A stretch of 64,000 bases of DNA from an uncultured delta proteobacterium (GTDB lineage: Bacteria > Desulfobacterota > Desulfomonilia > UBA1062): positions 96,001 through 160,000 of the forward strand of contig CAWCTR010000014.1 of assembly GCA_963798485.1 (NCBI GenBank). The letters are read 5' to 3'. The position numbers and the translations under genes are program-made. This document shows positions 42,730 to 64,000 of the stretch, one piece after another. Numbering within the stretch: the first letter of the stretch is position 1; each line of letters starts with the position of its first letter. The notes below the pieces were generated by a model. The model saw nothing but the letters and a program-made list of their open reading frames with translations, did not search any database and was not told where the DNA came from.

Positions 42730-44075
42730 CAGTAATGTCCGGTTAGGATTTTGCATAAACCCTTAATATATTGGTTCATCGTATTCGTTTTGTTTTGGTG
42801 AAAAAAATGCATCCGTGTGCAGATATCTCTTGACATATCGGGCACATAGGGAGGCGATTTTTCTGTAACTATCTATTATTACGGAGGAATTGCTCATGCC
42901 CTACACGTGGATGCCAGGAAAACCCAAGGAAAAACACAAAACCCACGACACCCTTATGACACCTGTCAACGACATATTGCCCGAAATCACCCCCCTGCTC
43001 TCGGGATGCAACCGACCCTTGAAAATGTCTTTTGAAGATCAGCTGAACATCTTGGTGTATTTCCATCTGGAAGAACACCATTCAGGACGTCACCTCCTAC
43101 AGGTTCTGAAGGAAGAACATTTTGCCCGGCAGCACATCGCACCCGTGGGCGGTATTGAAAAGAGCAGCTTCTTCGAGGACATCAGCTCACGTGGGTTGGA
43201 GCAGATGATAGAAATGTTCGGGAAGCTCTATGCAAAGGCTGCTAAACATTTACCCAAGGGACATGCTGAGTTAGGAGCTCTGGTCCTTATCGATGGTTCC
43301 CTGATTGATGCTGTGTTGTCCATGTACTGGGCCGACTACCGCAATGGCTCGAAAAAGGCCAAGGTTCATATCGGTTTCGATCTCAATTGCGGCATTCCCA
43401 AAAAAATATTCCTCACCGACGGCAAAGAGGCGGAACGGCCTTTTGTCGAGAGGATTCTGGCTCCGGGGGAAACAGGCGTCATGGATCGAGGCTACCAGAG
43501 CCATAAGCTCTTTGACACCTGGCAAGCTGACGGCAAGCATTTTATCTGCCGGATCAAAGCCTCCACGGATAAAATTGTCGTAAGAACGAATGACGTTCAA
43601 CTCGACAGTATAATCTTTTACGACGCCGTAGTTCTTCTTGGGACACCCGGTATCAATCGGACAGAAAGGGAACTCCGGCTGGTCGGCTATCGGGTAGCGA
43701 ACGTCAATTACTGGATAGCCACCGATCGCCACGATCTCACAGCCGAACAGATTGCCTCCGCTTATAAGCTCAGGTGGAACATCGAGATCTTCTTCGGCTG
43801 GTGGAAACGACATCTGAAGGTTTACCACCTTATTTCAAGGAGCAAATACGGATTGATGGTCCAGATGCTGGCCGGACTGATCACCTATATCCTCCTAGCC
43901 ATCTACTGCCATGACCACCATCGGGAAAAGGTTTCCGTCAAACGTCTTCGGGAAATATCCATCAATATCCACAACGAAATGAGTATCGAGGATATTGTAA
44001 ATCAAACCGGAGCCTGGTACTATCAACCGCCAAACAAGGATCAATCACATGCAAATCCTTAACCGGACATCAATG
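42730..44075 (+). mobile_element. IS4-family insertion sequence
   Basis: Imperfect terminal IRs CAGTAATGTCCGGTTAGG / CATTGATGTCCGGTTAAGG. 9-bp target duplication ATTAATATT at 42721-42729 and 44076-44084. Confidence 0.92.
42890..44062 (+). CDS. IS4-family DDE transposase
   Basis: IDGS, MDRGY, YKLRWNIEIFF..WK (YREK motif). Confidence 0.93.
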   Translation: MLMPYTWMPGKPKEKHKTHDTLMTPVNDILPEITPLLSGCNRPLKMSFEDQLNILVYFHLEEHHSGRHLLQVLKEEHFARQHIAPVGGIEKSSFFEDISSRGLEQMIEMFGKLYAKAAKHLPKGHAELGALVLIDGSLIDAVLSMYWADYRNGSKKAKVHIGFDLNCGIPKKIFLTDGKEAERPFVERILAPGETGVMDRGYQSHKLFDTWQADGKHFICRIKASTDKIVVRTNDVQLDSIIFYDAVVLLGTPGINRTERELRLVGYRVANVNYWIATDRHDLTAEQIASAYKLRWNIEIFFGWWKRHLKVYHLISRSKYGLMVQMLAGLITYILLAIYCHDHHREKVSVKRLREISINIHNEMSIEDIVNQTGAWYYQPPNKDQSHANP

Positions 44076-44619
44076 ATTAATATTAACTTAAGAAATATGA
44101 CGCTTAAATAATTGTTGGAGATAATAATTGCAAATAAAACCTACTGATAATGGGAAAATAAAGAGATAAATATGATGAGAAAAACACTATAAAAATTTAT
44201 GATGAAACAGAATTGATGAAAGAAATACTCATAATTATTTTAATTTGAAAAATATAACAAAAAATAACTATTTGAGATAATCGAGATAGATAAACCTGAC
44301 GCTTAAATCTGACATTAAATCTGACGCCTAAAACTTACACTTATTAAAATTTAAATGAATGAAAACAAGATGAGAGCGAGCAAACTTTTATTTAAAAACG
44401 AGCAATGCCCCAGCAGTGCGCAGGCTTCCGGTGTTGAGTTTAAAATAAAAGTAAAAAAATATTGCGCACTATATTTGAGAAAAAAGGCAATTGATAGCCT
44501 TGATGGAATCGGTTTCTGAAAATTATAAATAATATAAAGTGAAATTAAATGATTAAAATTAATTATGTATTTGTAGAAACAAAAGTAAAAGAAATAGTTA
44601 CTAAGGAGGAATTATTTAA

Positions 44620-45120
44620 ATGAGTAATTTATCATTTTCACGAATTGACGAAATTGAGCCTGTACAATTTCATTTAAAAGATGAAATTGAATCCTGGTGG
44701 AAGGAATACCAATTTGATGCCTTTATTTCGTTAAGCATCGATAATCAGTGGTTAAATGTCCCTTCAATAAATAGAAAATTAATTAGGTGGGTAAGAAAAA
44801 TTCAAGAAATAGAAAAAATTCAGATTGCTTATATGGGTGTAATTTCAAAACATAGGGGACATTCTAGAAAACATATTCATCTCCTCATGGTTGCAAAAAA
44901 TCGATACGGTAAATTACTGAAAAACTGTGACCTAGATAATTTCAAGAAATCTTGGGACTCATGTGCCAATATTCAATTTATTTATAATTATGAGGGCATT
45001 GTCAGATATCTTTGTTATAAAAATATGGGCTGTACTTACGAATTGATAACTCCATATAACATGAAATTGCTTAAAGCTATTTCTGTTAATCATAAGCAAA
45101 AAGATCAATTATTTCATTAA
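44620..45120 (+). CDS. Small HUH endonuclease / rolling-circle Rep-like protein
   Basis: AAGGAGG RBS; FISL (motif 1), KHIHLLM (HUH), GIVRYLCYK (Tyr motif). Confidence 0.55.
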   Translation: MSNLSFSRIDEIEPVQFHLKDEIESWWKEYQFDAFISLSIDNQWLNVPSINRKLIRWVRKIQEIEKIQIAYMGVISKHRGHSRKHIHLLMVAKNRYGKLLKNCDLDNFKKSWDSCANIQFIYNYEGIVRYLCYKNMGCTYELITPYNMKLLKAISVNHKQKDQLFH

Positions 45121-45615
45121 TTCTGAAATTATTGGTAATAACATCAAAAGGACAGTTTTTAGTTAAAAAATTATGAATTATGATTTTGTATTATTGAAAA
45201 AGAATTGCTATCATCTGATGTTTTCGACATTGTTTGAATGGTATATTTTGTTTAATTATCTAATTCGGGGTAATTTAGAAATTCAATTTAATTCTATGAA
45301 TTCAAAAAATCGTGAATTGCCACTTTTGAGAGTGCATCAGAAATTGTTAAAACAAAGGCCATTAGACTATTTACAGTCATTTTGTGATCATTTTTTGAGA
45401 TTTTTTTGAAACTTCTTAAAGCAGGGCATTTTCCCTGGTCAATTTTCAGTGTTTTTTGCATGAAAAATTGCCCTGAAAAACAATTTGTTGGTGAATTAAT
45501 TCTGAGAAATTCATTTTTGGAAGCATGTTGTGATATATGGTTGGTTCGGTCAAAGATTAACACCTTGATTTTATTTTTGGAATCTCTATTCTTGATTTTG
45601 TTTAGGATTAAATAA

Positions 45616-45646
45616 AAAAGCAGGGCCTGAGATTGACCCTGCTTTT
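45616..45646. terminator. Bidirectional rho-independent terminator
   Basis: AAAAGCAGGG-N11-CCCTGCTTTT downstream of the GT-C gene. Confidence 0.6.
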
Positions 45647-45688
45647 ACAATTTTTTAAATGTAATATTTCCAGTGGATTATATCAAGA

Positions 45689-47404
45689 TCACATTCTAAT
45701 CAGTTCATACAGATAATAATGCTCGTCATGCTGGATAATGTCCCCTTCGAAGCTTATGATCTTCTTCAAGAGATTGTTGCTTGTTAATTTTAGCATGGTT
45801 ACCGGCACTCCATTTGAATCACCCAATTTAAAATTGAGTATTATAAGAATCTTTTTGTTGTAATAATTCTGGAGATAGATGCTCTTTCTGAACAATTCAT
45901 TTAGATCTAGATTAGGGTTTCTATTAACACCCCACTCCATTGTTTTACTGAATTTATTTGTCTGAGGCAGAAAGATCTCTCTGTCTAAAATCACTGCTAT
46001 GGGTACAACTGTAAAATCAGGGCCACCTACTATTACATAATCATTATAATTATTATTTTTGATATAATTAGCTGCATCCCAGGATTTCGTGAATTGATAC
46101 ATAATACCTCTTGGATAAGTTAAAACCCCAGCAATAAACTGAAAGAAAAAAATTATTGTGACAAAGTACAAGGATACAGTATTATCAAATTTTTGATTAA
46201 GAAAATTGGTTGGATTTAATTTATTAAAAATAGGTATTTTAATTTTATCGTCAGAGTACTTGTAAAGCCAACAACAGTAGACAAAGATGATAAATAATAG
46301 ACCCTGATGCCTAATGAAGTAAGCCCCAAAGAAAAAGTTTAAGAAAACATAGTAGATACCGGTATTAAATAGAAATGTAATTAATATTGGTATCTTTTTT
46401 GAAAATATGAATAAACAAATTAAAATAATCAAGATGGCTGTAATAATTGTAAATACATTACCAGATGTTAAAAGGGTATATGCATTATAATATTCAGGAT
46501 AAAACCCAGGAGAAGGAAAAACATTAGTATTCCAGAAGGCTGCACCGTTTGAGAAATCAGGTATAGGAATGTAAGAATTCCAGATTGTCCTTATACTCAT
46601 GAAAAGAGGGGGATGGCCGAGTGACCCAAATTGTTGGGTATTTTGATTACTATATACATATGCATACTGAGAAAAAAGTAAGATGGAACCGACTCCCCAA
46701 ATAACAGCAGAAGCAATTATTTGATTTTTCTCTCTTGGTGTAAATTTATCTGATACGAGACCATTCAGCACATGAATTATAGTATAGAGCGCAAGACTAC
46801 ATGCAAATGTTGCAGAACTGATATTGTGATTTGCTAAAATAATGAGAAGAATGCTGATAACTAAATAATTCTTTCTTTCTCTTGTTAATAAGTAGATTAT
46901 AAGAAATAGCAATAAGATAAAAAAGCCATACCACCTACTAATAATTCCATACTCAAACAACATGAAATAACTAAATGTAAAATGAAATTTTTGAATATTA
47001 TTAAAATTTGAGTATTTGTTGAATATATATATGGCTAATGTGATAATAATTAAATGAAACGACTGAAAAACAGTAAAAGATGGTATAACATTTAATATAA
47101 TATGCAATAAGCCATAATACAGGATCGAATTAAACTCTAGATATCCTTGCGGCCCGTTATATTTGAAAAATCCATTATGTAAAATATTTGTATATACTTC
47201 AAGTTCATCTCTCCATAACAGATGATAATACATTCCAATTATTATCAGTAAAATATACATGAGGGTAATAATTATGGAGAAATAAGTGTTAAAATAACGG
47301 TTAGTAAACTTTAATAAATTCGATTCTGTTATTTTAACCTTTTTAGTATTATTACGAGATGTAGACTTATAATTTGGAATGTTATGTTTAATTTTTGAAT
47401 CCAT
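45689..47404 (-). CDS. Polytopic membrane protein, probable GT-C-fold glycosyltransferase
   Basis: LWRDE acidic motif after the first TM, FEYGIISRWY, many TM helices, C-terminal soluble domain; very AT-rich. Confidence 0.6.
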   Translation of the reverse strand: MDSKIKHNIPNYKSTSRNNTKKVKITESNLLKFTNRYFNTYFSIIITLMYILLIIIGMYYHLLWRDELEVYTNILHNGFFKYNGPQGYLEFNSILYYGLLHIILNVIPSFTVFQSFHLIIITLAIYIFNKYSNFNNIQKFHFTFSYFMLFEYGIISRWYGFFILLLFLIIYLLTRERKNYLVISILLIILANHNISSATFACSLALYTIIHVLNGLVSDKFTPREKNQIIASAVIWGVGSILLFSQYAYVYSNQNTQQFGSLGHPPLFMSIRTIWNSYIPIPDFSNGAAFWNTNVFPSPGFYPEYYNAYTLLTSGNVFTIITAILIILICLFIFSKKIPILITFLFNTGIYYVFLNFFFGAYFIRHQGLLFIIFVYCCWLYKYSDDKIKIPIFNKLNPTNFLNQKFDNTVSLYFVTIIFFFQFIAGVLTYPRGIMYQFTKSWDAANYIKNNNYNDYVIVGGPDFTVVPIAVILDREIFLPQTNKFSKTMEWGVNRNPNLDLNELFRKSIYLQNYYNKKILIILNFKLGDSNGVPVTMLKLTSNNLLKKIISFEGDIIQHDEHYYLYELIRM

Positions 47405-50399: not shown

Positions 50400-50877
50400 A
50401 AATTACCAATAGATTATTTCTATAATCCTATCTATAGATTATTTAAATTTAAATTAAAAATATCTTTTAAAAAGTGAAGATTTCGTGTCAGGCCATACGC
50501 TCTGCCCGTACTGAATATTTCTTTTGATAATTTCATAGGCCTTACGAATAAGAGAAGAGCAACGTTGACAAGAATTACAAATTTCTAAAATATTTGGTAA
50601 ATCAGTCTATGAAATAAGCCCGTCAAAGGCTATGTTTAAATCAACAATATTTAATTCCGAAGGAATATAAGAACCATTATTACATAACTTACGATTAATT
50701 CTATCAGTTAGAATATCAATGCTGAAATTCTAGGCAATTTTAAGATTACTAGAATAATTCTGTTGCTTATATATCGATAAAAAAACGATCTTTGATTGAA
50801 AATATCAAATGAACGCATGTAAAATCCCTATTCACAACTTTTAGGGAAGTCTTGATGAGATGAAGAACTACTTTGCA

Positions 50878-51015
50878 TGTTCCATCAAACGACCGATACA
50901 TGAGACCCCTTCAGTAGTAGTTCCTAACAACGTAAATCCATCATTCATAAGTCTCATAAAACCATCTCATTAATCATTGTCTCATATTGCCGATAAGTGT
51001 ATAATAAATGAGACA
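50878..51015. promoter_or_regulatory. res site and autoregulated sigma70 promoter of the resolvase
   Basis: GTCTCAT/ATGAGAC half-sites at 50900, 50951, 50964, 50978 and 51008. TTGTCT-N17-TATAAT (50977-51005) is overlapped by the TGTCTCAT..ATGAGACA inverted repeat. Confidence 0.65.
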
Positions 51016-51036
51016 CCATAGTGGGAGGATGAGATC

Positions 51037-51618
51037 ATGAAGGGAAAGCTGGTTGGATATGCCAGGGTTTCAACAAATGGACAGGAACTGGCTTTACAAT
51101 TGGATGCTCTGAAGAAGGCAGGGTGTAAGAAGGATCTCATCTTCACTGACAAGGTCAGTGGAGCAAAATCAGAGAGACCTGGTTTGGGTGCCTGTTTAAA
51201 GCAGCTGAAGGAAGGAGATACTCTACTGGTTTGGAGGCTCGATAGACTGGGTAGATCCATGCATCACTTGGTAGAACTTATTGAACAGCTACATAAGAAA
51301 GGAGTCGGTTTCCGATCCATATGTGATGGTCATATAGATACTACAACAGCATCAGGGGAACTGATATTTAACATCTTCAGTTCCTTGGCTCAGTTTGAAC
51401 GTAAGCTTCTTCAGGAAAGAACACGAGCAGGTCTTTCAGCTGCACGAGCCAGGGGTCATGTGGGAGGAAGGAGACCCATCCAGAGTGACAGCCCCAAGGT
51501 AAAGATGGCAAAGAAGATGAACCAGGATAAGAGCATGAGCATTGCTGATATCTGCTCAACACTCCGGATATCCAGAGCTACTCTATACCGGTATGTATCT
51601 CTTCCTGAGACTGCATGA
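51037..51618 (+). CDS. Serine resolvase/invertase (Hin/TnpR-type with C-terminal HTH)
   Basis: GYARVST, VWRLDRLGRS, ERTRAGL..AR.RG..GGRR, ISRATLYRY. Confidence 0.95.
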   Translation: MKGKLVGYARVSTNGQELALQLDALKKAGCKKDLIFTDKVSGAKSERPGLGACLKQLKEGDTLLVWRLDRLGRSMHHLVELIEQLHKKGVGFRSICDGHIDTTTASGELIFNIFSSLAQFERKLLQERTRAGLSAARARGHVGGRRPIQSDSPKVKMAKKMNQDKSMSIADICSTLRISRATLYRYVSLPETA

Positions 51619-51648
51619 AGGCTAATATCTTTCCTAAAGAGTTGTGAA

Positions 51649-52215
51649 TTACCCATTGAGCTTCTTCAGTAAACAGGCAATCTTCTGTCCCAGAGATCTT
51701 GCCTGTAGTATACCTTCCTCATCCTTTTCTACCTCACCTTTATCTCTGGCAACACTCATTGCACGACCAGCTATTATAAGGTCATTGCTAAGGAAAAAGT
51801 GATTCATGGTCTCTATAGTATGCATTCCTCCACTACGTCGAAAACAGACTACAGAAGCACCAACTTTATTCTGGTACATCTTCCCATTTGCCAACCCGAC
51901 AAAGCCAGCCCTGTCTACTAAAGCTTTCATCTCTGCTGTCACATCTTGAAAATAGGAAGGAGATCCCAGTATTATTCCCTGAGCTGCTCTTATCTTTTCG
52001 ATATATTCATTTGCAGCATCATTTTTTACGGAACACTGCTGGTCTTTATTCTCGAAGCACTTATAACAGGCAATACATCCGTGGATAGGCTTTGCTGAGA
52101 GTTGAACGAGTTCCGTTTCAATACCTTTATCTCCAATCTCTTGTAGAAGGTAGTTTATCAAAGTAGTTGTGTTCCCGTCTTTTCTTGGGCTCCCGTTAAA
52201 TGCTATGACCTTCAT
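51649..52215 (-). CDS. Iron-sulfur flavoprotein / NADPH-dependent FMN reductase family
   Basis: GSPRKDGNT, CIACYKC..C, GSPSYF. Confidence 0.88.
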   Translation of the reverse strand: MKVIAFNGSPRKDGNTTTLINYLLQEIGDKGIETELVQLSAKPIHGCIACYKCFENKDQQCSVKNDAANEYIEKIRAAQGIILGSPSYFQDVTAEMKALVDRAGFVGLANGKMYQNKVGASVVCFRRSGGMHTIETMNHFFLSNDLIIAGRAMSVARDKGEVEKDEEGILQARSLGQKIACLLKKLNG

Positions 52216-52313
52216 ATATGTTCTCCTTTCCCATACAAGGTACTATCGAATAGTATGAACAGCCATGGTTATTTAATCAAGGCATAAATAGAAAAGGCTA
52301 CAGGAGGAATGCT

Positions 52314-52895
52314 ATGAGCAGACTGCTTGAAATGGTGGATGAGAAAGCTCATCAAAGATCAATAACGGTAACAACATATAGAGCAGGAGTTGGCAAGGCT
52401 GTGGTTGAAGGTAGATTGGTGGATCATAGGTTGATGGAAAATTATCTGCTCACCGGAGAGAAAATCCCTGCTGGGGATATTCACAACATGATTGTAAGGC
52501 TCCTGATCGATACAACAAGCCTCATGATAGAGGATGTCGAAGTTGAAATGATTAAAGTGCCACGACAAGAGTGCACTGAACTTCATGACAGCCTTTCCGT
52601 AATCAAGGGGCTCCGGATATCCAAGGGATTCACTCAAAGGATAAAATCTCTCTTGGGTGGAACCAAGAGTTGCTCACACTTGAGAGAATTAGCAGAGGCA
52701 ATAGGTCCGGCTGTTATACAAGGTGTTTTCTCCATAAGAGCATCGAATGCTGCAGGATTTCGTGCTCTCATGGATGATCCACACATGAAAAAAGCCTTTT
52801 CAGATTCTCTTGCCAATTCTTGCTATGTATGGAGGGAGGATGGACCTGAGTTTAAGAAGGTCTTTGGTAATAATAACCGGCAGGGAGAAGCATGA
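52314..52895 (+). CDS. DUF2889-like protein
   Basis: HQRSI, IHNM..RL, P...C, GG..SCSHL.EL, NSCY.W. Confidence 0.7.
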   Translation: MSRLLEMVDEKAHQRSITVTTYRAGVGKAVVEGRLVDHRLMENYLLTGEKIPAGDIHNMIVRLLIDTTSLMIEDVEVEMIKVPRQECTELHDSLSVIKGLRISKGFTQRIKSLLGGTKSCSHLRELAEAIGPAVIQGVFSIRASNAAGFRALMDDPHMKKAFSDSLANSCYVWREDGPEFKKVFGNNNRQGEA

Positions 52896-53440
52896 TGGAT
52901 AATGATCGGTACTATGTGATGGGACAAATGGTTGAAGCCGTGGCATTACTTACTGCCTCTCCAAAGGTAAATACTCTCCTTCCTGAGATACGGAGCAACC
53001 TGGTAATGGCTACAAAGGATGCAGTAACACCAGAAGACATAGCAGGTATCCCAGGCAGACTCACGGCTGTATTTGGAAGGATCACAGCTCCGTCCTACCC
53101 AGCATGGGGAGCTTCAAAATATACTGCACTGATCCTGCTGGAGGTTCGGAAGATCAGGCCGGAGATCCGTGCTGCAATGGAAATCAAGTATGATCCCAAA
53201 CTAGTGCATTTAATGCAGAGCCACAATATCTCGATTGCAAGGCTTGATATTCGTGAGGGTGACAGCCTGGATGCCATTTTAAAAGAATGTATGCATGAAG
53301 GGATATTACCGGATCTCTTTTATACTGAAGGTGGTTTTGCCAGGGAAGGAGCCATCATCATAACAGGTATTGATGCAGTGACAGTAGCTAAGCTGGTTGT
53401 GCAGATTGCTGATTGGTCAGCCGAATCATGTCAGAGCTGA
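52892..53440 (+). CDS. ThiN-family (thiamine-phosphate synthase) domain protein
   Basis: LPEIRSNLVMA, AGIPGRL, WGAS, RAAMEIKY, GGFARE. Confidence 0.75.
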   Translation: MMDNDRYYVMGQMVEAVALLTASPKVNTLLPEIRSNLVMATKDAVTPEDIAGIPGRLTAVFGRITAPSYPAWGASKYTALILLEVRKIRPEIRAAMEIKYDPKLVHLMQSHNISIARLDIREGDSLDAILKECMHEGILPDLFYTEGGFAREGAIIITGIDAVTVAKLVVQIADWSAESCQS

Positions 53441-53654
53441 GCTGTTGATACAGAAACCATGCTTTATCACTGTGACTACATCTCTTTAAGAGTGCCATTA
53501 ACAACCGTGGTGGATGAGACTGACAAGATAGTCTGTAAGGTTTACCACGTCATAGACAGACCTGCTGATTGTAAAGACATGGTGATATTGATTTCATCCT
53601 GTCTCAACACATAATAATATTTGTGAGATTGTCCAATGAAGAAGGGGTAAGAAA

Positions 53655-54089
53655 GTGGCTACATCATATGAGATCTTCAAAGATATAGAACTGGTTGTCG
53701 TAACCTCCTCAGGTCCGGCAATCACTGAAGAAGTCATTGATATGCTTATCCGGTTGCAGGCTGATCCGGATTTTTCAATAACCTATAATGTTTTGTGGGA
53801 TAGCAGAGAGAGAACTATTCCTTTCACTTCAGATGAGATCAGGAACTTGGTGTCCTATGTCCACCGTTACAAGGGAGATAAGATACCCAAACCTAAACGA
53901 GCATTTTTGGTTTCCAAAGATGTGGTCTTCGGCATGCTACGGGTGTATGAGAGCTATCGTTCTGGCATAAGTCATGCTGATATTCAGATTTTCAGAGATA
54001 GGGATGAAGCACTGAAGTGGTTGGGAGTTCATGATTATCCACTATTCTGTACTAACAACAGCTCTGGTAATGATGAAGAAAGTAAATAG
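53655..54089 (+). CDS. STAS/SEC14-like (SpoIIAA-like) hypothetical protein
   Basis: LWDSR, KRAFLV...FGMLRVY, IFRDRDEALKWL. Confidence 0.6.
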   Translation: MATSYEIFKDIELVVVTSSGPAITEEVIDMLIRLQADPDFSITYNVLWDSRERTIPFTSDEIRNLVSYVHRYKGDKIPKPKRAFLVSKDVVFGMLRVYESYRSGISHADIQIFRDRDEALKWLGVHDYPLFCTNNSSGNDEESK

Positions 54090-54138
54090 TCCATTCTTCC
54101 AATATAGAGCTATGTCTTCGATTATCTAGGGTGGTGAA

Positions 54139-54549
54139 GTGGTAAAAGCCCTAGTAGTTATTGGAATATTCATCTCATTCCTTACTGCTACTATCCCTCT
54201 CTATGCCAATAAATATCAGCCTCTTCAAGAGAAGTGCACTGAACAGGCTAAGAAATTTGTTGAGCATCTTGATACTCCTACTACATATACTTGCCACTAC
54301 AATAAGAGACTGAAGAAGTGTTTCTTGTGCGTCCAGTTTAACATTGATCGGATAAAATTGAGAGGAGGAAAGACCAGGGTTCTTAAGCACCCTCAGAGGA
54401 TGGTGGTTCTCTATGATGTGCCGAAAGGTAAAATGATCGGCAATTGTACTTATGTAGGGATAGATAAGCAGGAGTGTTGGGTTAGAAAGACAAAATGCAA
54501 AACTAAGGATGAATTTGAAAAACTTATACGTCCATATATGGAAGAGTAG
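54139..54549 (+). CDS. Secreted Cys-rich hypothetical protein
   Basis: Signal peptide, seven Cys, HYNKRLKKCF. Confidence 0.6.
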   Translation: MVKALVVIGIFISFLTATIPLYANKYQPLQEKCTEQAKKFVEHLDTPTTYTCHYNKRLKKCFLCVQFNIDRIKLRGGKTRVLKHPQRMVVLYDVPKGKMIGNCTYVGIDKQECWVRKTKCKTKDEFEKLIRPYMEE

Positions 54550-54688
54550 TTGTAGGTGTAGCTGGAGGAGAACATTCTATTCTTTTTAGTTCTATTTCAA
54601 AGCTACTACAACTCAACCCTGGATGGTCGGTAAATATGCATGGGTACTGATCATCTCAGGTGGGCTAGATCAGGACTGATATCAATTT

Positions 54689-55006
54689 CTATTTGTTATC
54701 TGTATCCTCATGCTCTTCCAGGACAATGTCATCAACATCCACAGTATATTCGGCATCAACTTCACTAACAACCTCGATCACATCAGTCCTCTCTTCCTGA
54801 GCAAATATGACTGGTTCTGTCTTACCAAAGTAGGCTGATCGTCTCCTTCTCTTCCTTTTGTGAGTCCCCTTTGCCTCATCATCGTTCTGATTGACACCAC
54901 AGGAGGGGCAAAGTGGTTCTGGTCTGCCTAAGTCATAAAACTTAGTCCCACACTTATAACACTTGTATCGTGTACCGAGATCCACCGGAGTAATATCCTT
55001 CTTCAA
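54689..55006 (-). CDS. FYDLN-acid domain protein (zinc ribbon with acidic tail)
   Basis: DLGTRYKCYKCGTKFYDL...CPSCG and an acidic C-terminus. Confidence 0.85.
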   Translation of the reverse strand: MKKDITPVDLGTRYKCYKCGTKFYDLGRPEPLCPSCGVNQNDDEAKGTHKRKRRRRSAYFGKTEPVIFAQEERTDVIEVVSEVDAEYTVDVDDIVLEEHEDTDNK

Positions 55007-55075
55007 AAGACAGGGGCATGCAACCTAAACCAGCACACCCCTGTCAGATCAGGCCGAAGCTATTATAGATAACTT

Positions 55076-55594
55076 TTACTGTTCTTTAGGTTCATGCCGG
55101 AAATCTTTGCCATGTTGTGAATGCTGTTTTCCCCTCATCTCGTGGAACTTAACCATGAGCTGGTGGGAACGATCCGATCCGAGGATCCTTTTTATACCAA
55201 GTATATATTTGATATGTTCATCCGAAATCTTCAGCTTGTCTTCTGAAACCACCTTGTTCTGGGCAAGCACAGATGCCTCATCAACGGTATCTTTCTCAAG
55301 CATATCATGCAGTTTGAATCGGTCTTTCATGAGAGAGCTTTTGAGATCAATAAGTGTATCACGGTTATTTACGAACAGATTATCCAATGACTGCTTCTCT
55401 CCGGCAGTAAGCTTGAGTTCCTTGGACAGCTCTGGAGACTGCCACCACTTGAAGTTGTGCATGCCTTGGTGCATGCAGTGATGCATTTCCATTGCCTGGG
55501 CTTGCATTGTTCCAAAAAGAATGATCATTGCTGAGCAGACAAGCATTTTGAAGAGCTGTATTTTCCTCTGACCTAAATCCAATTGGCTTTTCAT
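55076..55594 (-). CDS. Spy/CpxP-like periplasmic protein
   Basis: Signal peptide, Met/His-rich start, KWW...ELKLT, helical. Start moved to ATG 55594 (GGAGG RBS). Confidence 0.7.
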   Translation of the reverse strand: MKSQLDLGQRKIQLFKMLVCSAMIILFGTMQAQAMEMHHCMHQGMHNFKWWQSPELSKELKLTAGEKQSLDNLFVNNRDTLIDLKSSLMKDRFKLHDMLEKDTVDEASVLAQNKVVSEDKLKISDEHIKYILGIKRILGSDRSHQLMVKFHEMRGKQHSQHGKDFRHEPKEQ

Positions 55595-55726
55595 AGTTCC
55601 TCCATAGTCATTTTCTAATTTCTTAAGACGTATAGAACATCGATGTTGTCTACATCTGGCATGGTGAGATGCTATGCCCAAGGATTGAGCAGTCACATTA
55701 AAGGTGGAGAGAGGTAAGGTATTAGA

Positions 55727-56258
55727 TTAGAACGATATCCACAGCACCAGATCATTATCTCTGACTGTAATACTTTTTAAGATCAGTCGGGCAAGGTTTT
55801 GTTTGTAGTCATCCTGCTTTAATTTATAGATCGGGTAATCTTCAAATATGTTTTTTACTACCAATGAGATAATACCCATAGCTTTGTCATTTTCGGAGAT
55901 AGTCTCATTGTTCATGGTCAGTTGAACTATTTCAAAATCACTCAGATAAAAGGATGTTTTTCCCGGTTTATAAACAGGCTTACACATGAATGCAATGTTC
56001 CCATTAATCTTTCTCAGAAGAAGAGAACCAGTATATTGGGCTGAGATACCGATACTATTACCCTGAAAAAAGACATTGGGTGAGAAAAACTTAATGGTTG
56101 CTGCAAGTGGCTTCTTCTCAAACTTTTTTCTCAAGAGGGAACTTCTTTTCGGTCATCTGTTGTAAGGTTGCCAGTGGTATAATGATTTCTTTCTCAAGAC
56201 CCAGGCATCCTGTGAATACAACCAACAAAACTAACATAGGTATAATCATTTTCTTCAT
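55727..56258 (-). pseudogene. DUF1439-like lipoprotein with +1 frameshift
   Basis: Lipobox VFTGC, LQQMTEKKFPLEK. One extra A in the run at 56124-56129 splits it from FEKKPL...PIYKL...LKSITV. Confidence 0.75.
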
Positions 56259-56425
56259 AAATATCCTCAGACAGGCAGTCACTCTATTGACGTAGTAGAC
56301 ATCATATACCATAGGTTTTTATGCAATAAACTTTGAAATAATAGGCCATAGATGATCCCGTATTATCTTCTCTACATAGCATTTAGGATTGTCACCAACA
56401 ACACTGTGGAGGTAAGTAATCAGTA

Positions 56426-57571
56426 ATGCCATTCTTCCTACTCACAGTCCTCAGCATTTATAGTGCAGTTCATGTATATACCTTCTTCAAGGTAAAGGCT
56501 GCTTTCCCCTTCGGACTCAGAAAAGGTATTCTCCTGGGTATCCTCTTTGCTTTCATGGAGTGCTCCCTAATTCTTATCCGAATTTTGGTCAGGTATGGTT
56601 ATGATTCTCCAGCCAGGGTGTTAGCTTACATAGGCTATTGTTGGATGGGTGTTCTTTTTCTCTTCTTTACGTTATCTATCCTGACAGATCTTTATTGCTT
56701 ATCATTGAAAGTTATCAGCCTGGTCTTTCATAAAGATATGACCTCTCTCATACCTTCGGCAAAGCAGATACTTCTGATACCCCTTTTCCTTGGTCTCTCC
56801 TTTTCCCTCTATGGATACTTCGAAGCCCTGAACATACGACCAGTACACATAACTATCAGATCACCCAAAATCCCAGAAGCTGTTGGTCATATTCGGATTG
56901 CCCAGATCTCTGATGTCCATATGGGTCTTATTGTCCAGGAAGACAGGATAAGAAAAATGATCAAAGTGATACAGGAGGCTCACCCTGATATCCTCATATC
57001 CACTGGGGACTTTGTGGATGGACAAATGGATAATCTTGCTGGCTTTGCAGATCTGTTTAAAGAGATCAAGACACGATATGGGAAATATGCAATCACAGGG
57101 AATCATGAATTTCATGCTGGTATAGCTGAGGGTATTGAGATTAACAGAAGAGCAGGGTTTACTATGCTAAGAGGTCAGGCTGTGACAGTTGCTGGCCTTA
57201 TCAATATAGCTGGTGTTGACTATTCCTTCGGAAGACATAGTGGTATATCTGAGAAGAACATACTTTCAAAACTCCCATTGGATAAGTTCACGATTCTTCT
57301 CAAGCATGCTCCTGTTGTGGATCAGAGTGCCCTGGGTTTATATGACCTTCAACTTTCAGGGCATACCCATGGGGGACAGATCTTCCCCTTCCGGCTTATC
57401 ATTAGGATTTTTACTCCCTATGTCATGGGATGGTACAATCTTCCTTATGGATCTCACCTGTACGTTAGTAAGGGAACAGGGACTTGGGGTGCTCCAATAC
57501 GGTTCCTTTCACCACCGGAGGTCACTGTGATTGATCTTATTCATGGCAACCAACTTCGACCCAACACTTAA
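56426..57571 (+). CDS. Membrane-anchored metallophosphoesterase (YkuE-like)
   Basis: N-terminal TM helices; SDVH, TGDFVD, GNHE, LKH, SGHTHGGQ. Confidence 0.9.
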   Translation: MPFFLLTVLSIYSAVHVYTFFKVKAAFPFGLRKGILLGILFAFMECSLILIRILVRYGYDSPARVLAYIGYCWMGVLFLFFTLSILTDLYCLSLKVISLVFHKDMTSLIPSAKQILLIPLFLGLSFSLYGYFEALNIRPVHITIRSPKIPEAVGHIRIAQISDVHMGLIVQEDRIRKMIKVIQEAHPDILISTGDFVDGQMDNLAGFADLFKEIKTRYGKYAITGNHEFHAGIAEGIEINRRAGFTMLRGQAVTVAGLINIAGVDYSFGRHSGISEKNILSKLPLDKFTILLKHAPVVDQSALGLYDLQLSGHTHGGQIFPFRLIIRIFTPYVMGWYNLPYGSHLYVSKGTGTWGAPIRFLSPPEVTVIDLIHGNQLRPNT

Positions 57572-58122
57572 TCAATGTAGTCCACTGATCCCTTCCTATT
57601 ACGTTCATTAGAAGTATATTTGTTCTCAGCTGCTGCATAACCAATGGCGACAGCACACTTAAGCCCATAGCCGTCAGGGATACCTGCCTCTTTTGAAAGG
57701 TCACTGTTGCTCTCACCATTCAATGCCAGTGTCGGACTGACAAGGAAGCATGATCCAAACCCCAGAGCAGTAGCTTCCAGGAGCATGTTTTGTGCAGCAA
57801 GAGCTGCATTAACTGCTCCATATGGAGAATTATCAGGAGCTGAGAGCAGGATCAACATTGGTGCTCCATACAGAGGCTGATATCCTGGCAGAGCTGCTCT
57901 CTGTTGTAGGAATTCAAGGCTAGAATGCACCATTGCATCGAGTGTCCGATCATTTATCTTTTTACGAAGCTCTGCATTGCGGATGATGGAGATCTGAAAT
58001 GGTCCGGCATTCGGAGCCCACCGACCAGCTTCGATTATCTTCTCCAGATCATCAGCAGGAACTGGTTTATCCAAGTATGCTCTGATACTTTTCCTCTTTA
58101 ATATTGCCTCTGTGATATTCAT
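57568..58122 (-). CDS. Nitroreductase family protein
   Basis: RKSIRAY, AGRWAP, AAQNMLL.A..LGFGSC, AIGY. Confidence 0.9.
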   Translation of the reverse strand: MNITEAILKRKSIRAYLDKPVPADDLEKIIEAGRWAPNAGPFQISIIRNAELRKKINDRTLDAMVHSSLEFLQQRAALPGYQPLYGAPMLILLSAPDNSPYGAVNAALAAQNMLLEATALGFGSCFLVSPTLALNGESNSDLSKEAGIPDGYGLKCAVAIGYAAAENKYTSNERNRKGSVDYID

Positions 58123-58206
58123 TCTCGTTCTCCCTCTTGGTCATCAGTTCTGCACAACAATAGTACTCACCTTAGGTATAGGCAAAGCATTTGGAGGTAC
58201 ATTATC

Positions 58207-58950
58207 TCATATGTGATGATTGAATGTTTTCCGTCCTCCAAACAGAGCCAACTCAAAGACCTTGAAGAAACAATCCACATCTTGAAAGCCTATGTCACGA
58301 AGCCATTGACACTGTGTTTCAACGGGGGCAAGAATATTTTCTAGCTTGTCAGGCCGATAATAGTATACCTCTTCGATCTCCTTCCTTGTTTAACTTGGGC
58401 TGGCATTGCTGTGGAATTGCATGAGGTGATCAACAAAGAAGCTGTCAAAAAGCTTACTTACTGAAGGGGTTGTTGGACTAACATGATCAAGGTTTAAGAA
58501 AAGGCCATCTTCATTGAGAAGTCCATAGATCTCGGCATACAACTCCCTCTTTCTATCATCTGGTTGATGATGGATGGCAAATCCCGATACAATAATATCA
58601 AAAGGCTTTTCTAGTTCAATCCCATTAGTCCAAGCCGATGTTGCAAAATCTATATTGATGACCGTTGCATGTTTATTAATACCGATCTGGTTATGTAACT
58701 TATCCAGCATAGGTTCGGAAAAATCAGCAAAGATCACATGAACTGTGGGGTGCTCATCAAGTAGCATTCGACCAAGAATTCCATCTCCACACCCCAGGTC
58801 TAAAATCTTGGATGGCAGAGGGCACCACTCACTTACAATCTTACTGATTACTTCCAGCTGGAAGTCTGCTACAGGAATAGCTCCTCTAACCCCTTCTAAG
58901 AAGGTCCGTGCACTCTCCTTGGTTTGCCATTTACTGTGATATTCATTCAT
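58207..58950 (-). pseudogene. Class I SAM methyltransferase with internal TAA stop
   Basis: LDLGCGDG, SGFAIHH. After TAA at 58392-58390 the same frame continues TRKEIEEVYYYRPDK...WLRDIGFQDVDCFFK..ELALFGG to TGA at 58207. Confidence 0.85.
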
Positions 58951-59064
58951 TCCTATTCCTCAAACTGGTCTGATTAAAACTCAACTTAAGTTTCATCATA
59001 ATAATGACGAACTATGTATAGATATAGGATAACCTCGGTTCTCAATAAAGCCCATAAGGAGGGG

Positions 59065-59493
59065 ATGATGTCAACAGTGTCAGGAATCTCATCTGTGAAC
59101 TATCAGTACCAGACTAATACACAAAACACCTTCAAGCAGGACTTTCAGGCTCTGAGCAATGCCCTTCAATCCGGTAATTTATCAGCTGCCCAGTCAGCAT
59201 TCTCAGCACTTCAGACAGCTATGCAGGGTAATCAGTCAAACGGAACACAGCAGCAAAGTCAGAACAGTACATTAACCACCGACTTCAACAACCTTGCAAG
59301 TGCTCTGCAATCAGGTAATTTAGCAAGTGCCCAGTCAGCATTTGCCACTCTGCAACAGGCCATGCAGCAGGTTCAGCAGGGTCAGGGTCATCATCATCAC
59401 CATCATCACCAAACCGATAGTACAACTGCTTCAACCGATCAGACTAGTGGAACGACTAGTATGACTGGTACCACCGTCAATGTTACAACCTGA
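59065..59493 (+). CDS. Gln/Ser/Thr-rich protein with duplicated helical motif and His7 tract
   Basis: AAGGAGG RBS; F..L..ALQSGNL..AQSAF..LQ occurs twice; GHHHHHHH. Confidence 0.7.
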   Translation: MMSTVSGISSVNYQYQTNTQNTFKQDFQALSNALQSGNLSAAQSAFSALQTAMQGNQSNGTQQQSQNSTLTTDFNNLASALQSGNLASAQSAFATLQQAMQQVQQGQGHHHHHHHQTDSTTASTDQTSGTTSMTGTTVNVTT

Positions 59494-59569
59494 GGGAGAA
59501 TCGGAAGATCAGTTATCAGTAATGATAGAGATTTATAAGGATTGAGTGATCCATCTATCTCCCTGTTTG

Positions 59570-60166
59570 TCATTCTCTTTTAGCTATTAAAATGTCTTGA
59601 TCGAGGTCTTGTAAGAATGCCCAGAGCATATTGACCCAAACCTGATATGTCACAATATTAGGAGAGTGGGTTTTTGTCAGAGGTAGAAGGAAAAGATGAT
59701 ACCATGTAACAATATAATTGTTGTACTGATACTGCTTTATGACCTTGTCACCCTTCTTGACATCAATAGTGAGAGTGAAATTATCTGTTGACCTAACAGG
59801 AATGAGTCCTAAGGATAGACCCAAGATTATTCCACATATAGCTGCTGAATCCTCATCACCATCATTTCTCATGATAATAGAAAAGTGATAATCCGATTTG
59901 CCGTTTCCTACATTATATTTCGAGAAAAGATTGCTTTGGGCAAAGATACTGTTGATCTCTCCCTGGAACACAGGTAATACCATTGAATTATCTCGGTTAT
60001 TCCATAAGTACTTTACATCATAATCAATGGATGGTTTTGTTTCCGGCGGCTTAACTTGATAGGATTTAGGAAAGTCATGGCCCAGAAAGCTTGCACATCC
60101 TGAGAAGGAGGAACAAATAAATAAAAGAATTAGACACCGTACACTAAGAAATAAATCAGATTTCAT
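59570..60166 (-). CDS. Hypothetical lipoprotein (paralogue 1)
   Basis: Lipobox FSGC; internal hydrophobic helix. Confidence 0.7.
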   Translation of the reverse strand: MKSDLFLSVRCLILLFICSSFSGCASFLGHDFPKSYQVKPPETKPSIDYDVKYLWNNRDNSMVLPVFQGEINSIFAQSNLFSKYNVGNGKSDYHFSIIMRNDGDEDSAAICGIILGLSLGLIPVRSTDNFTLTIDVKKGDKVIKQYQYNNYIVTWYHLFLLPLTKTHSPNIVTYQVWVNMLWAFLQDLDQDILIAKRE

Positions 60167-60180
60167 AAACTACCTCCATG

Positions 60181-60801
60181 CTAAGGCTGACGTGTATGCT
60201 CAAGAGCAACATCCTTTCGGAAATCATGTAGGAATGCCATGAACATCTGATTCATTACCTGTCTATCTGCATCAACTGGAAAATGTGAAGGAGTCAGAAC
60301 AACGAGAAATAGATCTAGCCAAACTGTAACATAATCCTTATACTCATATTGTTTTAAGAACTGATCACCCTTACTAACATCAACATTAAGAGTATAGTCT
60401 TCCTCGATATATGCTGGAAGAATTGTCCCAGTAATTACGTATAGGATTAAAAGAGACATGGAAAAATGCTGCCTTATATCAAACGAAAAAGAGAAGTGGT
60501 AATCTGCAGTTCCTATACCAGAACTGAATTTTGAGAAGCAATTGTTCTGGGCAAAACTCTTATTGATATATTCTTCGAATGACTTCTCTCTGGTGGCACC
60601 TTGGTATTGACTCCCCTCCACGACTAATGATTTGATATCAAAGTCAATTGATGGTTTATTTGGCATTGGCTGGAATTGCTCATTGGTATAATTAGGGAAA
60701 TCTTTATTTATAAAGCTGGCACAGCCTGACACTGATAAAGACAATGCAAAATACAAAATAACATATCGGAAACCGATGTCATTTAAACAATTCAAATTCA
60801 T
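60181..60801 (-). CDS. Hypothetical lipoprotein (paralogue 2)
   Basis: Lipobox VSGC; shares SGCASF, KPSID.D.K and KQY.Y..Y...W with its neighbour. Confidence 0.7.
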   Translation of the reverse strand: MNLNCLNDIGFRYVILYFALSLSVSGCASFINKDFPNYTNEQFQPMPNKPSIDFDIKSLVVEGSQYQGATREKSFEEYINKSFAQNNCFSKFSSGIGTADYHFSFSFDIRQHFSMSLLILYVITGTILPAYIEEDYTLNVDVSKGDQFLKQYEYKDYVTVWLDLFLVVLTPSHFPVDADRQVMNQMFMAFLHDFRKDVALEHTRQP

Positions 60802-61097
60802 TCACCCTGTTCTTTATAAGAGCACATTAGGCCAATTGCAAAACTACTTCAAGGTAATTCTGTCGAATTTTGGTGTCCAGTGATATAAGTAAGCCATACA
60901 AGTTGTATGAAGCATTAAAATCCGTGCAGAATACCCTATCCATGATAAAATAAGACGCATCTATGGTTGTTTCTCGTATATATAATGAATATGAACGATA
61001 ATCATATCTGTAAACGTATAACGTTAATGCTTTACTAACATTTGACGATAATATATATTAATAGGGTTTTCATTAAAATATAAGAAGAAGGTAGAAC

Positions 61098-61727
61098 ATG
61101 ATTGCTCAGAGAAAACCAAAAACCTTTGGTTACCTTCGTGTCTCAACCTCCTCTCAGGACACAGAAAAATTCAAAGCTGAGATCCTAAGCTTTGCTAATA
61201 TTCACGACTTCGGCAAAGTAGAGTTCATTGAAGAAACAGAATCAGGGAAGAAGCACTGGAGAGAAAGAAGGTTAGGGGAACTTGTGGAATCTCTTCAGTC
61301 AGGAGATCATATTATAGCTCCCGAAATGTCTAGATATGGTCGCTCAATGTTAGAAGTTTTGGAAATCCTCAAGGTATGTAAGGACAAGGACATCTCTGTC
61401 TATGCGATCAAGGGTAACTATTCCCTCAATGGGTCTATGGAATCTAAGATCGTTGCCACTATCCTGGCATTAGTGAGTGAACTGGAGCATGATTTTATCG
61501 TATCCAGAACTAAAGAAGCATTAGCTGCTAAGAAAGCTCAAGGAGTCATTTTGGGTAGACCAAAAGGTCCTGGTAAATCAAAACTAGACCAATATAAGCC
61601 TGAGATAGAGGCACTTCTTAAAAATGGGTCTACAAAAGTATTTATTTCAAAGCGTTATAAAACTACCCCTGCAAATCTTTACAATTGGATGAAGCAGAAT
61701 AAAATTATCATCAATAAATCCAAATAA
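61098..61727 (+). CDS. Serine recombinase (resolvase/invertase family)
   Basis: GYLRVST..QD, EMSRYGRS, SRTKEAL..KK..G..LGRP. Confidence 0.93.
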   Translation: MIAQRKPKTFGYLRVSTSSQDTEKFKAEILSFANIHDFGKVEFIEETESGKKHWRERRLGELVESLQSGDHIIAPEMSRYGRSMLEVLEILKVCKDKDISVYAIKGNYSLNGSMESKIVATILALVSELEHDFIVSRTKEALAAKKAQGVILGRPKGPGKSKLDQYKPEIEALLKNGSTKVFISKRYKTTPANLYNWMKQNKIIINKSK

Positions 61728-62001
61728 GACCAACTGGAGATTAATAATGCCTATTATAAAAACTATAAACAGTAGAGATATTACTTTAGTTCAAAGATCA
61801 GGACAACAGGATGGTCAACAAGATAGTCAGTCTGGTGGTGGGTGCCATACGACTAGAATAACAATAGAGACAAGAAGTAATATGTCAGGTCCAGAAGGGA
61901 AACCAAAAGATAATGAAGTAATAGGTGGTCCCCTCTGTGCCAATGAGAGTGAGACACTTTCCCCCCAATAGTTTAGTGTAGGGCGGGAAGGGAAAATATG
62001 A

Positions 62002-62508
62002 GTGGAAAAGAAAGAAGGCATGATTAACGGTTCTAATCTTAAAGATGAGGAAATGGAAGGAGCCCGTAGGGCGACTGGAATTTCCTCATCTTTGGCCCCT
62101 CACAGATCCAGGGGCATCAGTGTTGTTCCAGATCCGGAGGTTCCGGAGAAGGCGACCCGAAGGAGATTTACTGCGGAATACAAGCTCCGTATCCTCAGGG
62201 AAGCACAGGGCTGTGGAGATCAGCGCCAAGTTGGCGCCCTTTTACGCAGGGAGGGCTTGTATTACTCCAACCTGACCACGTGGCGCAAGCAGGTGGAAAA
62301 GGGGACATTGGAGGCCCTTACCTCAAAGAAAAGAGGGCCCAAAGCCAAGAAGCCAAATCCGTATGCCCGCCGCATCGCAGAGCAAGAAAAAGAGAACTTG
62401 AAGCTGCGTTCACAGCTGAGAAAAGCCGGGCTCATCATCGAGGCTCAAAAAAAAATTGCGGCACTCTTTCAATCACACCTGGATCCGGAGGAAGGGGAGA
62501 TATCATGA
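62002..62508 (+). CDS. IS3 transposase OrfA
   Basis: RRRFTAEYKLRIL, GALLRREGLYYS.L..WR. A9 slippery run at 62447-62455. Confidence 0.9.
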   Translation: MEKKEGMINGSNLKDEEMEGARRATGISSSLAPHRSRGISVVPDPEVPEKATRRRFTAEYKLRILREAQGCGDQRQVGALLRREGLYYSNLTTWRKQVEKGTLEALTSKKRGPKAKKPNPYARRIAEQEKENLKLRSQLRKAGLIIEAQKKIAALFQSHLDPEEGEIS

Positions 62509-63515
62509 AAATAACAACTTCTCTTGCCATGAATGTAGGTATCAAGCGGGCTTGTCATGCACTGACGGTTTCCCGTGCCGGGTTTTATCGGTGGAAGAAT
62601 CTTTTTGAGAACGAGAAACCTGAATCTGTCCGTGCGTTGCCACCTCTGTCCTTGTCCATGGAAGAGCAGCTACGGGTTCTTGATGCGCTTCATGAAGAAC
62701 GGTTCGTCGATAAGACGCCCCAGGAGGTGTATGCTTCCCTTCTGGATGATGGCATGTATCTGTGTTCGGTCAGGACCATGTACCGGCTTCTGAAAGCACA
62801 TAAGGAAGTCAAGGAAAGGAGAAACCAGCTCAGACATCCTGTATACACCAAACCGGAACTCCTCGCACAAGGGTCTAACCAGATCTGGTCCTGGGATATA
62901 ACTAAACTAAAAGGACCGGCCAAATGGACCTACTTTTACCTTTACGTTATCCTCGATATCTTCAGCCGATACGTGGTCGGCTGGATGGTTGCCTCCCAGG
63001 AATCCGGATCGTTGGCAAAAAAATTGATCGAACAATCCTGCGAGAAACAGATGATCCAGGCAGACCAACTGTGCATCCATTCCGATCGGGGTCCCAGCAT
63101 GACATCTAAACCGGTCGCGTTCCTGCTTGCAGACCTGAGCATCACCAAAAGCCTTTCCCGGCCTCATGTCAGCAATGACAACCCCTACTCGGAATCTCAG
63201 TTCAAGACAATGAAGTACAGGCCGGAATTCCCGGAAAGGTTCGGCTGTATCGAAGACTCCAGGTCTTTCTCCCAGGAATTCTTCAACTGGTACAATACCG
63301 AACATTACCATTCAGGAATCGGATTCCTCACCCCGGAGGATGTCCATTATGGTCGGGCAGAACAGATTATCAAAGATCGGCAGACTGTTCTTAATGCCGC
63401 ATTCGACAAACATCCGCAGCGCTTTAAGGGCAACATCCCAAAATCTCTACCCTTGCCCGATGCCGTGTGGATTAACAAACCAACACCATTTGCGGACGAG
63501 GAAAGTCTACACTAA
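62505..63515 (+). CDS. IS3 transposase OrfB (DDE integrase domain)
   Basis: WSWDITKL, DIFSRYVVGW, HSDRG, SNDNPYSESQFKTMK. ATGA overlap with OrfA; also reachable by -1 frameshift. Confidence 0.92.
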   Translation: MKITTSLAMNVGIKRACHALTVSRAGFYRWKNLFENEKPESVRALPPLSLSMEEQLRVLDALHEERFVDKTPQEVYASLLDDGMYLCSVRTMYRLLKAHKEVKERRNQLRHPVYTKPELLAQGSNQIWSWDITKLKGPAKWTYFYLYVILDIFSRYVVGWMVASQESGSLAKKLIEQSCEKQMIQADQLCIHSDRGPSMTSKPVAFLLADLSITKSLSRPHVSNDNPYSESQFKTMKYRPEFPERFGCIEDSRSFSQEFFNWYNTEHYHSGIGFLTPEDVHYGRAEQIIKDRQTVLNAAFDKHPQRFKGNIPKSLPLPDAVWINKPTPFADEESLH

Positions 63516-64000
63516 ATGTCTTATGAAAGTGTCTCATCCTCATTGACAAGTTCCGGTCAATCTAGTTCTAATCCTGAGGATGAGACATACATATCAGAGG
63601 TTTCAGATATTGAAGCAGTAATGGATAAGATAGATAATCAAAATGCTGTCATATCAGGCATAGCAGAGTATGGTGAAGAACCTGTTGGGTTTAGCTTTCT
63701 AAGTAATGCCACATTAATTCCAGCAGTTAGTAAAGAAATAAAGAAATGGCTTAATTTGTTCCGCATAAATAATAACATAGAACAAACATTATACTCTCCT
63801 GGCACTCCTCATAGATTAATTCCCAACCTTTGGGGAAGGGAACTGACGTATGCAAAACAAGATACAAGGAGAAGGAGCAAGATTGATAAAGTAGTATGCT
63901 TTATCTTGGATCTAAAAGGGTCAATGGACCCAAAACTTATTAATGTTGTAATATCAACTATTAGTCTAACTCTTCGTAAATATGAAGTGATTAGTAAATA

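Follow-up and report, generated by a model that had tools for sequence, protein, structure and literature searches.

Restriction-site avoidance in phages, plasmids and host genomes, as described in PMC4687349 and PMC4176335, leaves a short word missing far beyond what composition predicts, on both strands and in coding and non-coding DNA. The words avoided in known cases are sites of recognised enzymes, mostly palindromes of 4–6 bp. From the words that a mobile element avoids, the nucleases to which it was exposed are routinely deduced. Recognition of only two or three bases also exists in nature: the short-motif methylases and nickases of chlorella viruses set out in PMC9636781 act on GC, CC, CCD and RGCY, and none of those listed targets GCG. 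Exactly this word is read by an engineered variant of M.HhaI, whose authors stated in 2009 that no natural C5-methyltransferase was known to recognise it (PMC2790894). Here we describe a block of 10 kb that has lost nearly all GCG and CGC, in a 64,000-nt window of the genome of an uncultured peat Desulfomonilia bacterium (C14:96001-160000 of host genome G000). Coordinates without a contig name are positions in that window.

A block purged of GCG and CGC

The block (50820-60950; 10131 nt, 41.6% G+C) contains 167 CG dinucleotides, four GCG (54329, 57647, 57979 and 60046) and no CGC; the closest occurrences beyond its edges are at 50814 and 60956. A first-order Markov model predicts 31.1 GCG and 31.3 CGC (about 62 sites), and 1000 exact dinucleotide-preserving shuffles of the block gave a mean of 62.4 sites (standard deviation 6.9, minimum 39; Poisson P(<=4) = 5e-22). 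CGC and GCG have the lowest observed/expected ratios of the 64 trinucleotides (0 and 0.13), the next being TAG at 0.71, and among all 3- to 5-mers GCG/CGC is the sole extreme word. The Markov expectation and the dinucleotide shuffles thus rule out chance or composition as the cause.

Codon bias is ruled out by the coding and non-coding parts of the block together. The 15 open reading frames (ORFs), which lie on both strands and total 8433 nt, were subjected to 1000 within-gene shuffles of synonymous codons with the block's own usage; these still gave 60.8 sites on average (standard deviation 6.4, minimum 34), because most sites would form across codon boundaries. The spacers, 1706 non-coding bases, have no site where 5.9 are expected. 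Among the codons themselves, GCG encodes 0 of 187 alanines and CGC 1 of 133 arginines.

The purge is strand-symmetric, with GCG and CGC both gone from genes of either orientation and from the spacers; of the four residual sites, one reads GCG in the sense strand and the other three read CGC. Since genes on both strands are affected and residual sites occur in both sense orientations, the purge is a DNA-level effect. Avoidance at the RNA level, such as that of an mRNA interferase, is ruled out because sense and antisense are equally purged. A process resembling repeat-induced point mutation of duplicated genes is ruled out too, since chromosomal paralogues retain their sites and GCG-free relatives are found elsewhere.

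Outside the block the words are common: the kilobase at 49-50 kb has 9 of them and that at 62-63 kb has 21. Their loss is not a general trait of low-G+C DNA: 168 loci fetched from outside the host (1.92 Mb, 1656 two-kb windows) have a median observed/expected ratio of 0.91 and a 1% quantile of 0.54, and only two stretches among them, a metagenome contig (L117) and part of a sister-species locus (G034), fall below 0.2. These results bear out the observation made in an earlier note on this DNA. Our recount reproduces exactly its four GCG at these positions and its zero CGC. Its "well over 100" remaining CG dinucleotides are the 167 counted here, and every context that it listed is present (TCGA 23, CCGG 20, ACGA 20, TCGG 26, ACGT 12). 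Its expectation of dozens of sites is met by all three nulls, so that the depletion stands in k-mer ratios and in codon-preserving shuffles alike. It was also right that about 15 genes on both strands and their spacers are purged while the flanking DNA, including an IS3 element, carries the words freely.

Genes and edges of the block

The features of the block and of its right flank are as follows.

50820..60950: GCG/CGC-purged block, G+C 41.6% against 50.6% in the host
50900..51014: res-like cluster of four ATGAGAC heptamers (+ - - +), directly upstream of the resolvase gene
51037..51618, +: serine recombinase (resolvase; PF00239, E 1.3e-48) with HTH_7 domain
51649..52215, -: flavin mononucleotide (FMN) reductase / iron-sulfur flavoprotein-like (Isf-like) protein; chromosomal paralogue with 79% DNA identity
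52314..52895, +: DUF2889 protein
52892..53440, +: ThiN-type thiamine-phosphate synthase domain protein; 0 GCG/CGC against 5-39 in six homologues
53655..54089, +: ORF without Pfam family, within a 2.3-kb module missing from a peat variant
54139..54549, +: ORF without Pfam family, containing residual GCG 54329
54689..55006, -: FYDLN_acid zinc-ribbon protein; paralogue on G000:C7 with 85% DNA identity
55076..55696, -: ORF with a weak, sub-cut-off Metal_resist match; paralogue on G000:C8 with 83% identity
55727..56134, -: DUF1439 protein
56426..57571, +: membrane-anchored calcineurin-like metallophosphoesterase
57568..58122, -: nitroreductase, containing residual sites 57647 and 57979
58390..58950, -: small S-adenosylmethionine-dependent methyltransferase, Methyltransf_25/12 type; two chromosomal paralogues with 76% identity
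59014..59493, +: Gln/His-rich protein with an internal 141-nt repeat
59570..60166, -: predicted lipoprotein without family, containing residual GCG 60046
60181..60801, -: predicted lipoprotein without family
61098..61727, +: second serine recombinase, outside the purge, with GCG/CGC at 61341, 61404 and 61652
61938..63548, +: IS3-family element with 24-nt inverted ends, outside the purge and GCG-rich

The left edge of the purge lies within ~90 nt of the res-like cluster, in which 4 of the window's 18 matches to ATGAGAC fall inside 115 nt. The earlier suggestion of a res site at this edge is therefore plausible, and the proximity agrees with its view that the signature delimits a discrete nested element. 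The right edge falls in the spacer ahead of the second resolvase gene, whose GCG/CGC rate is normal, and the IS3 element comes next. The first GCG/CGC past either edge (50811-50819 and 60953-60961) sits within an identical hexamer, ACGCAT, which may be coincidence. No Tn3-type DDE transposase was present among the ORFs at 47–64 kb and no inverted repeats bracketing the block were found; nor did we find transposase or conjugation genes, or a complete replicon, for the block.

All 15 block ORFs are intact. The methyltransferase at 58390..58950 does not belong to a DNA-methylase family. The protein at 59014-59493 has a run of seven histidines and its 141-nt repeat is direct; its homologues in the genus are 79-84% identical. 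The surrounding 40-80 kb region of the window is a compositional mosaic with several insertion sequence (IS) elements, and the block's own flanks form part of this mosaic. Further to the left, 44000-47400 has 29% G+C and very few CG; it encodes 571-aa and 166-aa ORFs without Pfam family and is flanked by IS4-type transposase genes.

A second block in a host without the signature

The host is a metagenome-assembled genome (MAG) of 4.30 Mb in 32 contigs, with 50.6% G+C and an estimated contamination of 6.96%. Its genome-wide ratio for GCG plus CGC is 0.91, and those for GCGC, CGCG and CCGC are 1.21, 0.84 and 0.98; the host exerts no such pressure against GCG. A scan of 8494 two-kb windows (P<1e-4) flagged the block, a second region at C17:118.5-125 kb and one window on C8, the last being a mild dip within a G+C-rich stretch. 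Among the 4251 windows with at least 8 sites expected, the 13 with the lowest ratios all lie in the two blocks.

The GCG-free part of the C17 block (118471-124406, equivalent to L019 6471-12406) holds only 2 CGC, and its cargo consists of putative membrane and resistance-type ORFs. Its neighbours are a penicillin-binding-protein gene on one side and a PhoU-like/acyl-CoA synthetase pair on the other. These flanks are ~120 nt apart in G037:C116 and likewise adjacent in G028, G032, G038 and G026, so the C17 block is a clean insertion into a conserved backbone. The right end of the insertion holds a small two-ORF module with normal GCG. Taken together, the ~18 kb of GCG-free DNA have an observed/expected ratio of ~0.05 (6 against 130.2, both-strand counts) and a G+C content 8-9 points under that of the host. 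Its deviating composition marks the window block as horizontally acquired DNA, and the C17 block has, in addition, an empty site in relatives. A third region, C7:455.9-460.2 kb, is low in G+C, has 16 GCG/CGC where 34.3 are expected and carries the 85%-identical FYDLN paralogue; it may be an older, partly restored acquisition.

Sites present in homologues are lost from the blocks

For most block genes the genus offers homologues at 76-87% DNA identity, and the host genome itself paralogues at 65-85%; when the block DNA was run against 401 sampled genomes of the phylum, no match was closer than the genus. The homologous loci are not GCG-poor, save for a 3.2-kb stretch in G034. We compared both blocks with their homologues over alignments at least 78% identical. 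Not one of the 169 GCG/CGC sites in the homologues is kept, against 62 of 199 for ACG (31%), 125 of 300 for TCG (42%) and 99 of 311 for CCG (32%). New sites in the blocks number 62-73 for each of ACG, TCG and CCG and only 4 for GCG/CGC. Where a site is common to at least two homologues, and hence probably ancestral, 0 of 72 are kept. The ThiN gene illustrates this: its 87%-identical copy in G033 has 5 sites, three of them shared with outgroups, and more distant copies have 9-39. The three ancestral sites of the G033 copy imply that the purge of ThiN is later than that split. Homologues thus hold the sites and the blocks keep none, which, together with the codon shuffles, sustains the earlier statement that neither codon bias nor general CpG loss accounts for the purge.

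The changes that removed these sites bear on their cause. Of 356 codon changes by which a site of a homologue was lost, 238 are synonymous (67%), similar to other differing codons (62-64%), which points to ordinary evolution under protein constraint and not to base-calling error. A mutational origin would attribute the loss to a cytosine methyltransferase or deaminase that acted on GCG in the donor, leaving hypermutable cytosines and a decay like that of CpG in vertebrates. The blocks do show general CpG decay against their homologues, the window block having ~16 CpG per kb against ~45 in core DNA (about a third), and in each context the most frequent single changes are G>A and C>T at CpG. At ancestral GCG, however, CpG transitions account for 53% of single changes, not above the 52-68% of other NCG contexts, whereas a motif-specific deamination of about 18-fold should yield almost nothing else. 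A further 14% are changes of the first base (G), by which the word is lost and the CpG left intact (6-8% in other contexts); deamination cannot produce these. This comparison has a small basis, 51 single changes from homologues 70-87% identical. The ratio of ~0.05 for the two blocks also lies under the observed/expected ratio of CpG in vertebrates, which is roughly 0.2. Finally, a natural GCG methyltransferase is not on record among the enzymes treated in PMC2790894 and PMC9636781. Changes at GCG of whatever kind, not dominated by transitions, fit selection, and we consider a purely mutational cause unlikely. The absence of any kept site, the 67% synonymous share and the lack of CpG-transition dominance are what would be expected from the long residence under selection against a 3-bp word that the earlier note had envisaged.

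That note had offered, as one possible agent, combined pressure from restriction systems for GCGC, CGCG and CCGC. All three words are indeed absent from the block, but among the 169 lost sites are 65 in the context DGCGW, which belong to none of GCGC, CGCG and CCGC/GCGG, and none of these is kept either. Likewise GCGA, GCGT, ACGC and TCGC occur twice in total in the block, whereas in core DNA 17% of CG dinucleotides stand in these contexts. Full coverage of GCG by 4-bp sites would need four separate specificities, of which, to our knowledge, only two are known; one three-base specificity is simpler. Avoidance of known 4-bp sites is thus refuted as the explanation, with hardly any probability left to it.

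We also regard an artefact, whether a chimeric assembly or systematic miscalling of bases at a modified motif, as highly improbable. The estimated contamination of the MAG is a point in its favour. Against it stand the largely synonymous replacements, the 15 of 15 intact ORFs, the position of both blocks inside contigs of 308 and 508 kb, with conserved backbone on both sides of the C17 block, and the agreement of independent data, namely L117, which comes from another assembly, and the G034 stretch.

Relatives, mobility and age

Among 38 loci retrieved from metagenomes with the nitroreductase is L117, a contig of 2027 nt (37.6% G+C) with 31 CG and 0 GCG/CGC where 11.3 are expected. It carries a nitroreductase fragment 84% identical in DNA to the block copy, and its remaining ORFs are unrelated to the block; one of these, of 198 aa, has only 5 relatives among 5.8 billion proteins. 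Searches of 52 genomes of the family for the DNA of L117, of 122 genomes of the class for this ORF and of the 401-genome phylum sample for a homologue of the ORF all came back empty, and tblastn of the two L117 ORFs against G000 and the fetched loci gave no match. The second GCG-poor relative is the G034 stretch (G034:C7:169166-172323; loci L002, L013 and L014), 3.2 kb of a sister species with 5 GCG/CGC, in which an 85%-identical nitroreductase lies beside a FYDLN gene. A scan with the lipoprotein at 60181-60801 gave zero relatives in metagenomes.

In Logan contigs from peat runs of three studies we found a variant ~91-94% identical to the block, in which 52265-53426 is joined directly to 55727-57568. 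This variant is without the 2.3-kb module 53427-55726 and, in one run, also without the Isf-like gene. Its junctions show the element to be modular and widespread. In the sequencing runs the share of the block matched is small, at most 0.16, and bears on neither habitat nor abundance beyond the junctions that the contigs bridge.

These data can be set against the possibility that the donor was an entire organism with no GCG anywhere in its genome, either in the genus or close to it and so far unsampled, so that both blocks are ordinary transfers. The cargo is mundane and of chromosomal type, 76-87% identical to genes of the genus; the C17 block has no mobility gene; and the unrelated ORFs of L117 are GCG-free as well. 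However, all 14 genus species and 6 other genomes of the family (2-20 kb sampled from each) have ratios of 0.77-0.99, and the homologous loci of relatives are normal apart from the G034 stretch. Moreover, the class and phylum samples lack the L117 ORF, and the modular peat variants resemble a mobile element. We therefore judge a GCG-free donor genome improbable, and favour a mobile element as the vehicle. The resolvase with its res-like site at the block's edge, the plasmid location of resolvase relatives and the empty site of the C17 block speak for mobility as well.

The arrival of the block in this host is recent. A random substitution in the block has a chance of about 5.4% of making a GCG/CGC, so that four sites correspond to ~0.7% substitutions per site; the residual sites at 57979 and 57647 are not common to the relatives; and the host backbone is 10-12% diverged from the nearest species. 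Less strongly depleted regions, in C7, G034, L112 and L113, may have arrived earlier and be acquiring sites again.

Search for an agent

The host encodes a Type III system and a probable restriction-modification operon (G000:C23:122372-126442; L150), in which a C5 DNA methylase is accompanied by a Vsr mismatch endonuclease and an HNH protein of 313 aa. The k-mer spectra of the host give no clue to the specificity of the methylase. A literature search on GCG avoidance and on natural GCG enzymes, with supplementary files outside its scope, found no report of either.

Loss of the word could also reflect starvation of a CRISPR (clustered regularly interspaced short palindromic repeats) system, the element having shed a three-base protospacer-adjacent motif (PAM). 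A PAM can lie on either strand, so that GCG and CGC would both be lost, and the host carries an array. However, none of its 72 spacers matches the blocks or the fetched loci, save one 17-nt hit at chance level. The PAM depletion published for phages is weak, and we know of no GCG PAM. We rate the probability of this explanation as very low. The array itself (G000:C7:1643-6799) has 73 repeats of 36 nt, and its spacers match none of the host's own islands.

A proposed recoded pool of mobile DNA

We propose that the block is a fragment of a plasmid-like mobile gene pool that was long selected against GCG by a nuclease or modification activity specific to three bases, an account to which we give about an even chance. 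It would have originated in a plasmid-like, resolvase-bearing element circulating among peat Desulfomonilia, whose lineage, before its arrival here, would long have been under strong selection against double-stranded GCG/CGC. The most economical agent would be a nuclease, or a modification-dependent defence, that reads three bases. Each site would raise the risk of cleavage at every transfer, so any change destroying a site would be favoured, and the changes that became fixed would mostly leave the protein unaltered. Ordinary genes would have been picked up from the pool of the genus and then recoded. A recent landing in a host free of the pressure would explain why only about four sites have re-arisen. 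That selection and not mutation emptied the block, that a mobile element carried it and that a three-base-specific enzyme exists are inferences in this account. Its broader form, in which peat Desulfomonilia communities harbour a natural restriction, defence or modification activity that reads only GCG and recodes a pool of mobile DNA, we put forward more tentatively, as a possibility somewhat short of even.

Several results weigh against this account. The general CpG decay and the prevalence of CpG transitions in all contexts have been described, as has the small basis of the spectrum comparison; a mutational component linked to methylation may therefore have contributed. No nuclease, DNA methylase or other candidate agent was found in or beside either block; the host's own systems have a specificity that is not assignable, and the host is without GCG-related avoidance. 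The C17 block has no recombinase gene. Relatives of the resolvase, with protein identities of up to 74%, are spread over many phyla and sit on plasmids, but the 80 related-resolvase loci are all normal (lowest ratio 0.79), so the purge does not characterise the element family of this recombinase. Scans of viral contigs with the phosphoesterase, ThiN and the L117 ORF found none, the resolvase gene was the sole match in the plasmid collection, and neither search recovered a complete GCG-free replicon. The GCG status of the peat variant was checkable at only 36 of several hundred differences, where 0 new sites were seen and ~2 expected at the rate for random substitutions, which makes this a weak check; one further difference that creates a site lies in a short high-depth match, probably from chromosomal Isf genes.

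If the proposed enzyme does lie behind the purge, no bacterial restriction or modification system with a shorter specificity would be known. The enzyme would also be of practical use, since a methylase for GCG has been thought worth engineering (PMC2790894). The GCG-free blocks would then be footprints leading to the enzyme and its targets. The signature is a cheap computational marker that finds acquired DNA and dates its arrival, and it could serve to fish the carrier replicon and the enzyme from metagenomes, making the question testable even though the organisms are uncultured.

Comparison with known systems

The locus resembles restriction-site avoidance in the extent and symmetry of the loss, here in DNA with marks of mobility and with removal largely by synonymous changes. 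It differs from known cases of such avoidance in its object, a three-base non-palindrome for which no cognate enzyme is known, and in being near-total over ~18 kb. The chlorella virus enzymes of PMC9636781 provide a precedent for recognition of 2-3 bases; those are viral, belong to eukaryotic algal hosts and, as listed there, include none for GCG. The M.HhaI variant of PMC2790894 establishes that the C5-methyltransferase fold is able to read exactly GCG, yet it is a laboratory construct, and its authors name no natural enzyme with that target. Finally, an HTH_7 serine resolvase behind a res-like cluster at the edge, with a second resolvase after the block, recalls the res-resolvase modules of plasmids and the Tn3 family. 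Unlike the Tn3 family, the block has no Tn3-type transposase or terminal inverted repeats, and unlike the related resolvase loci, it is GCG-poor.

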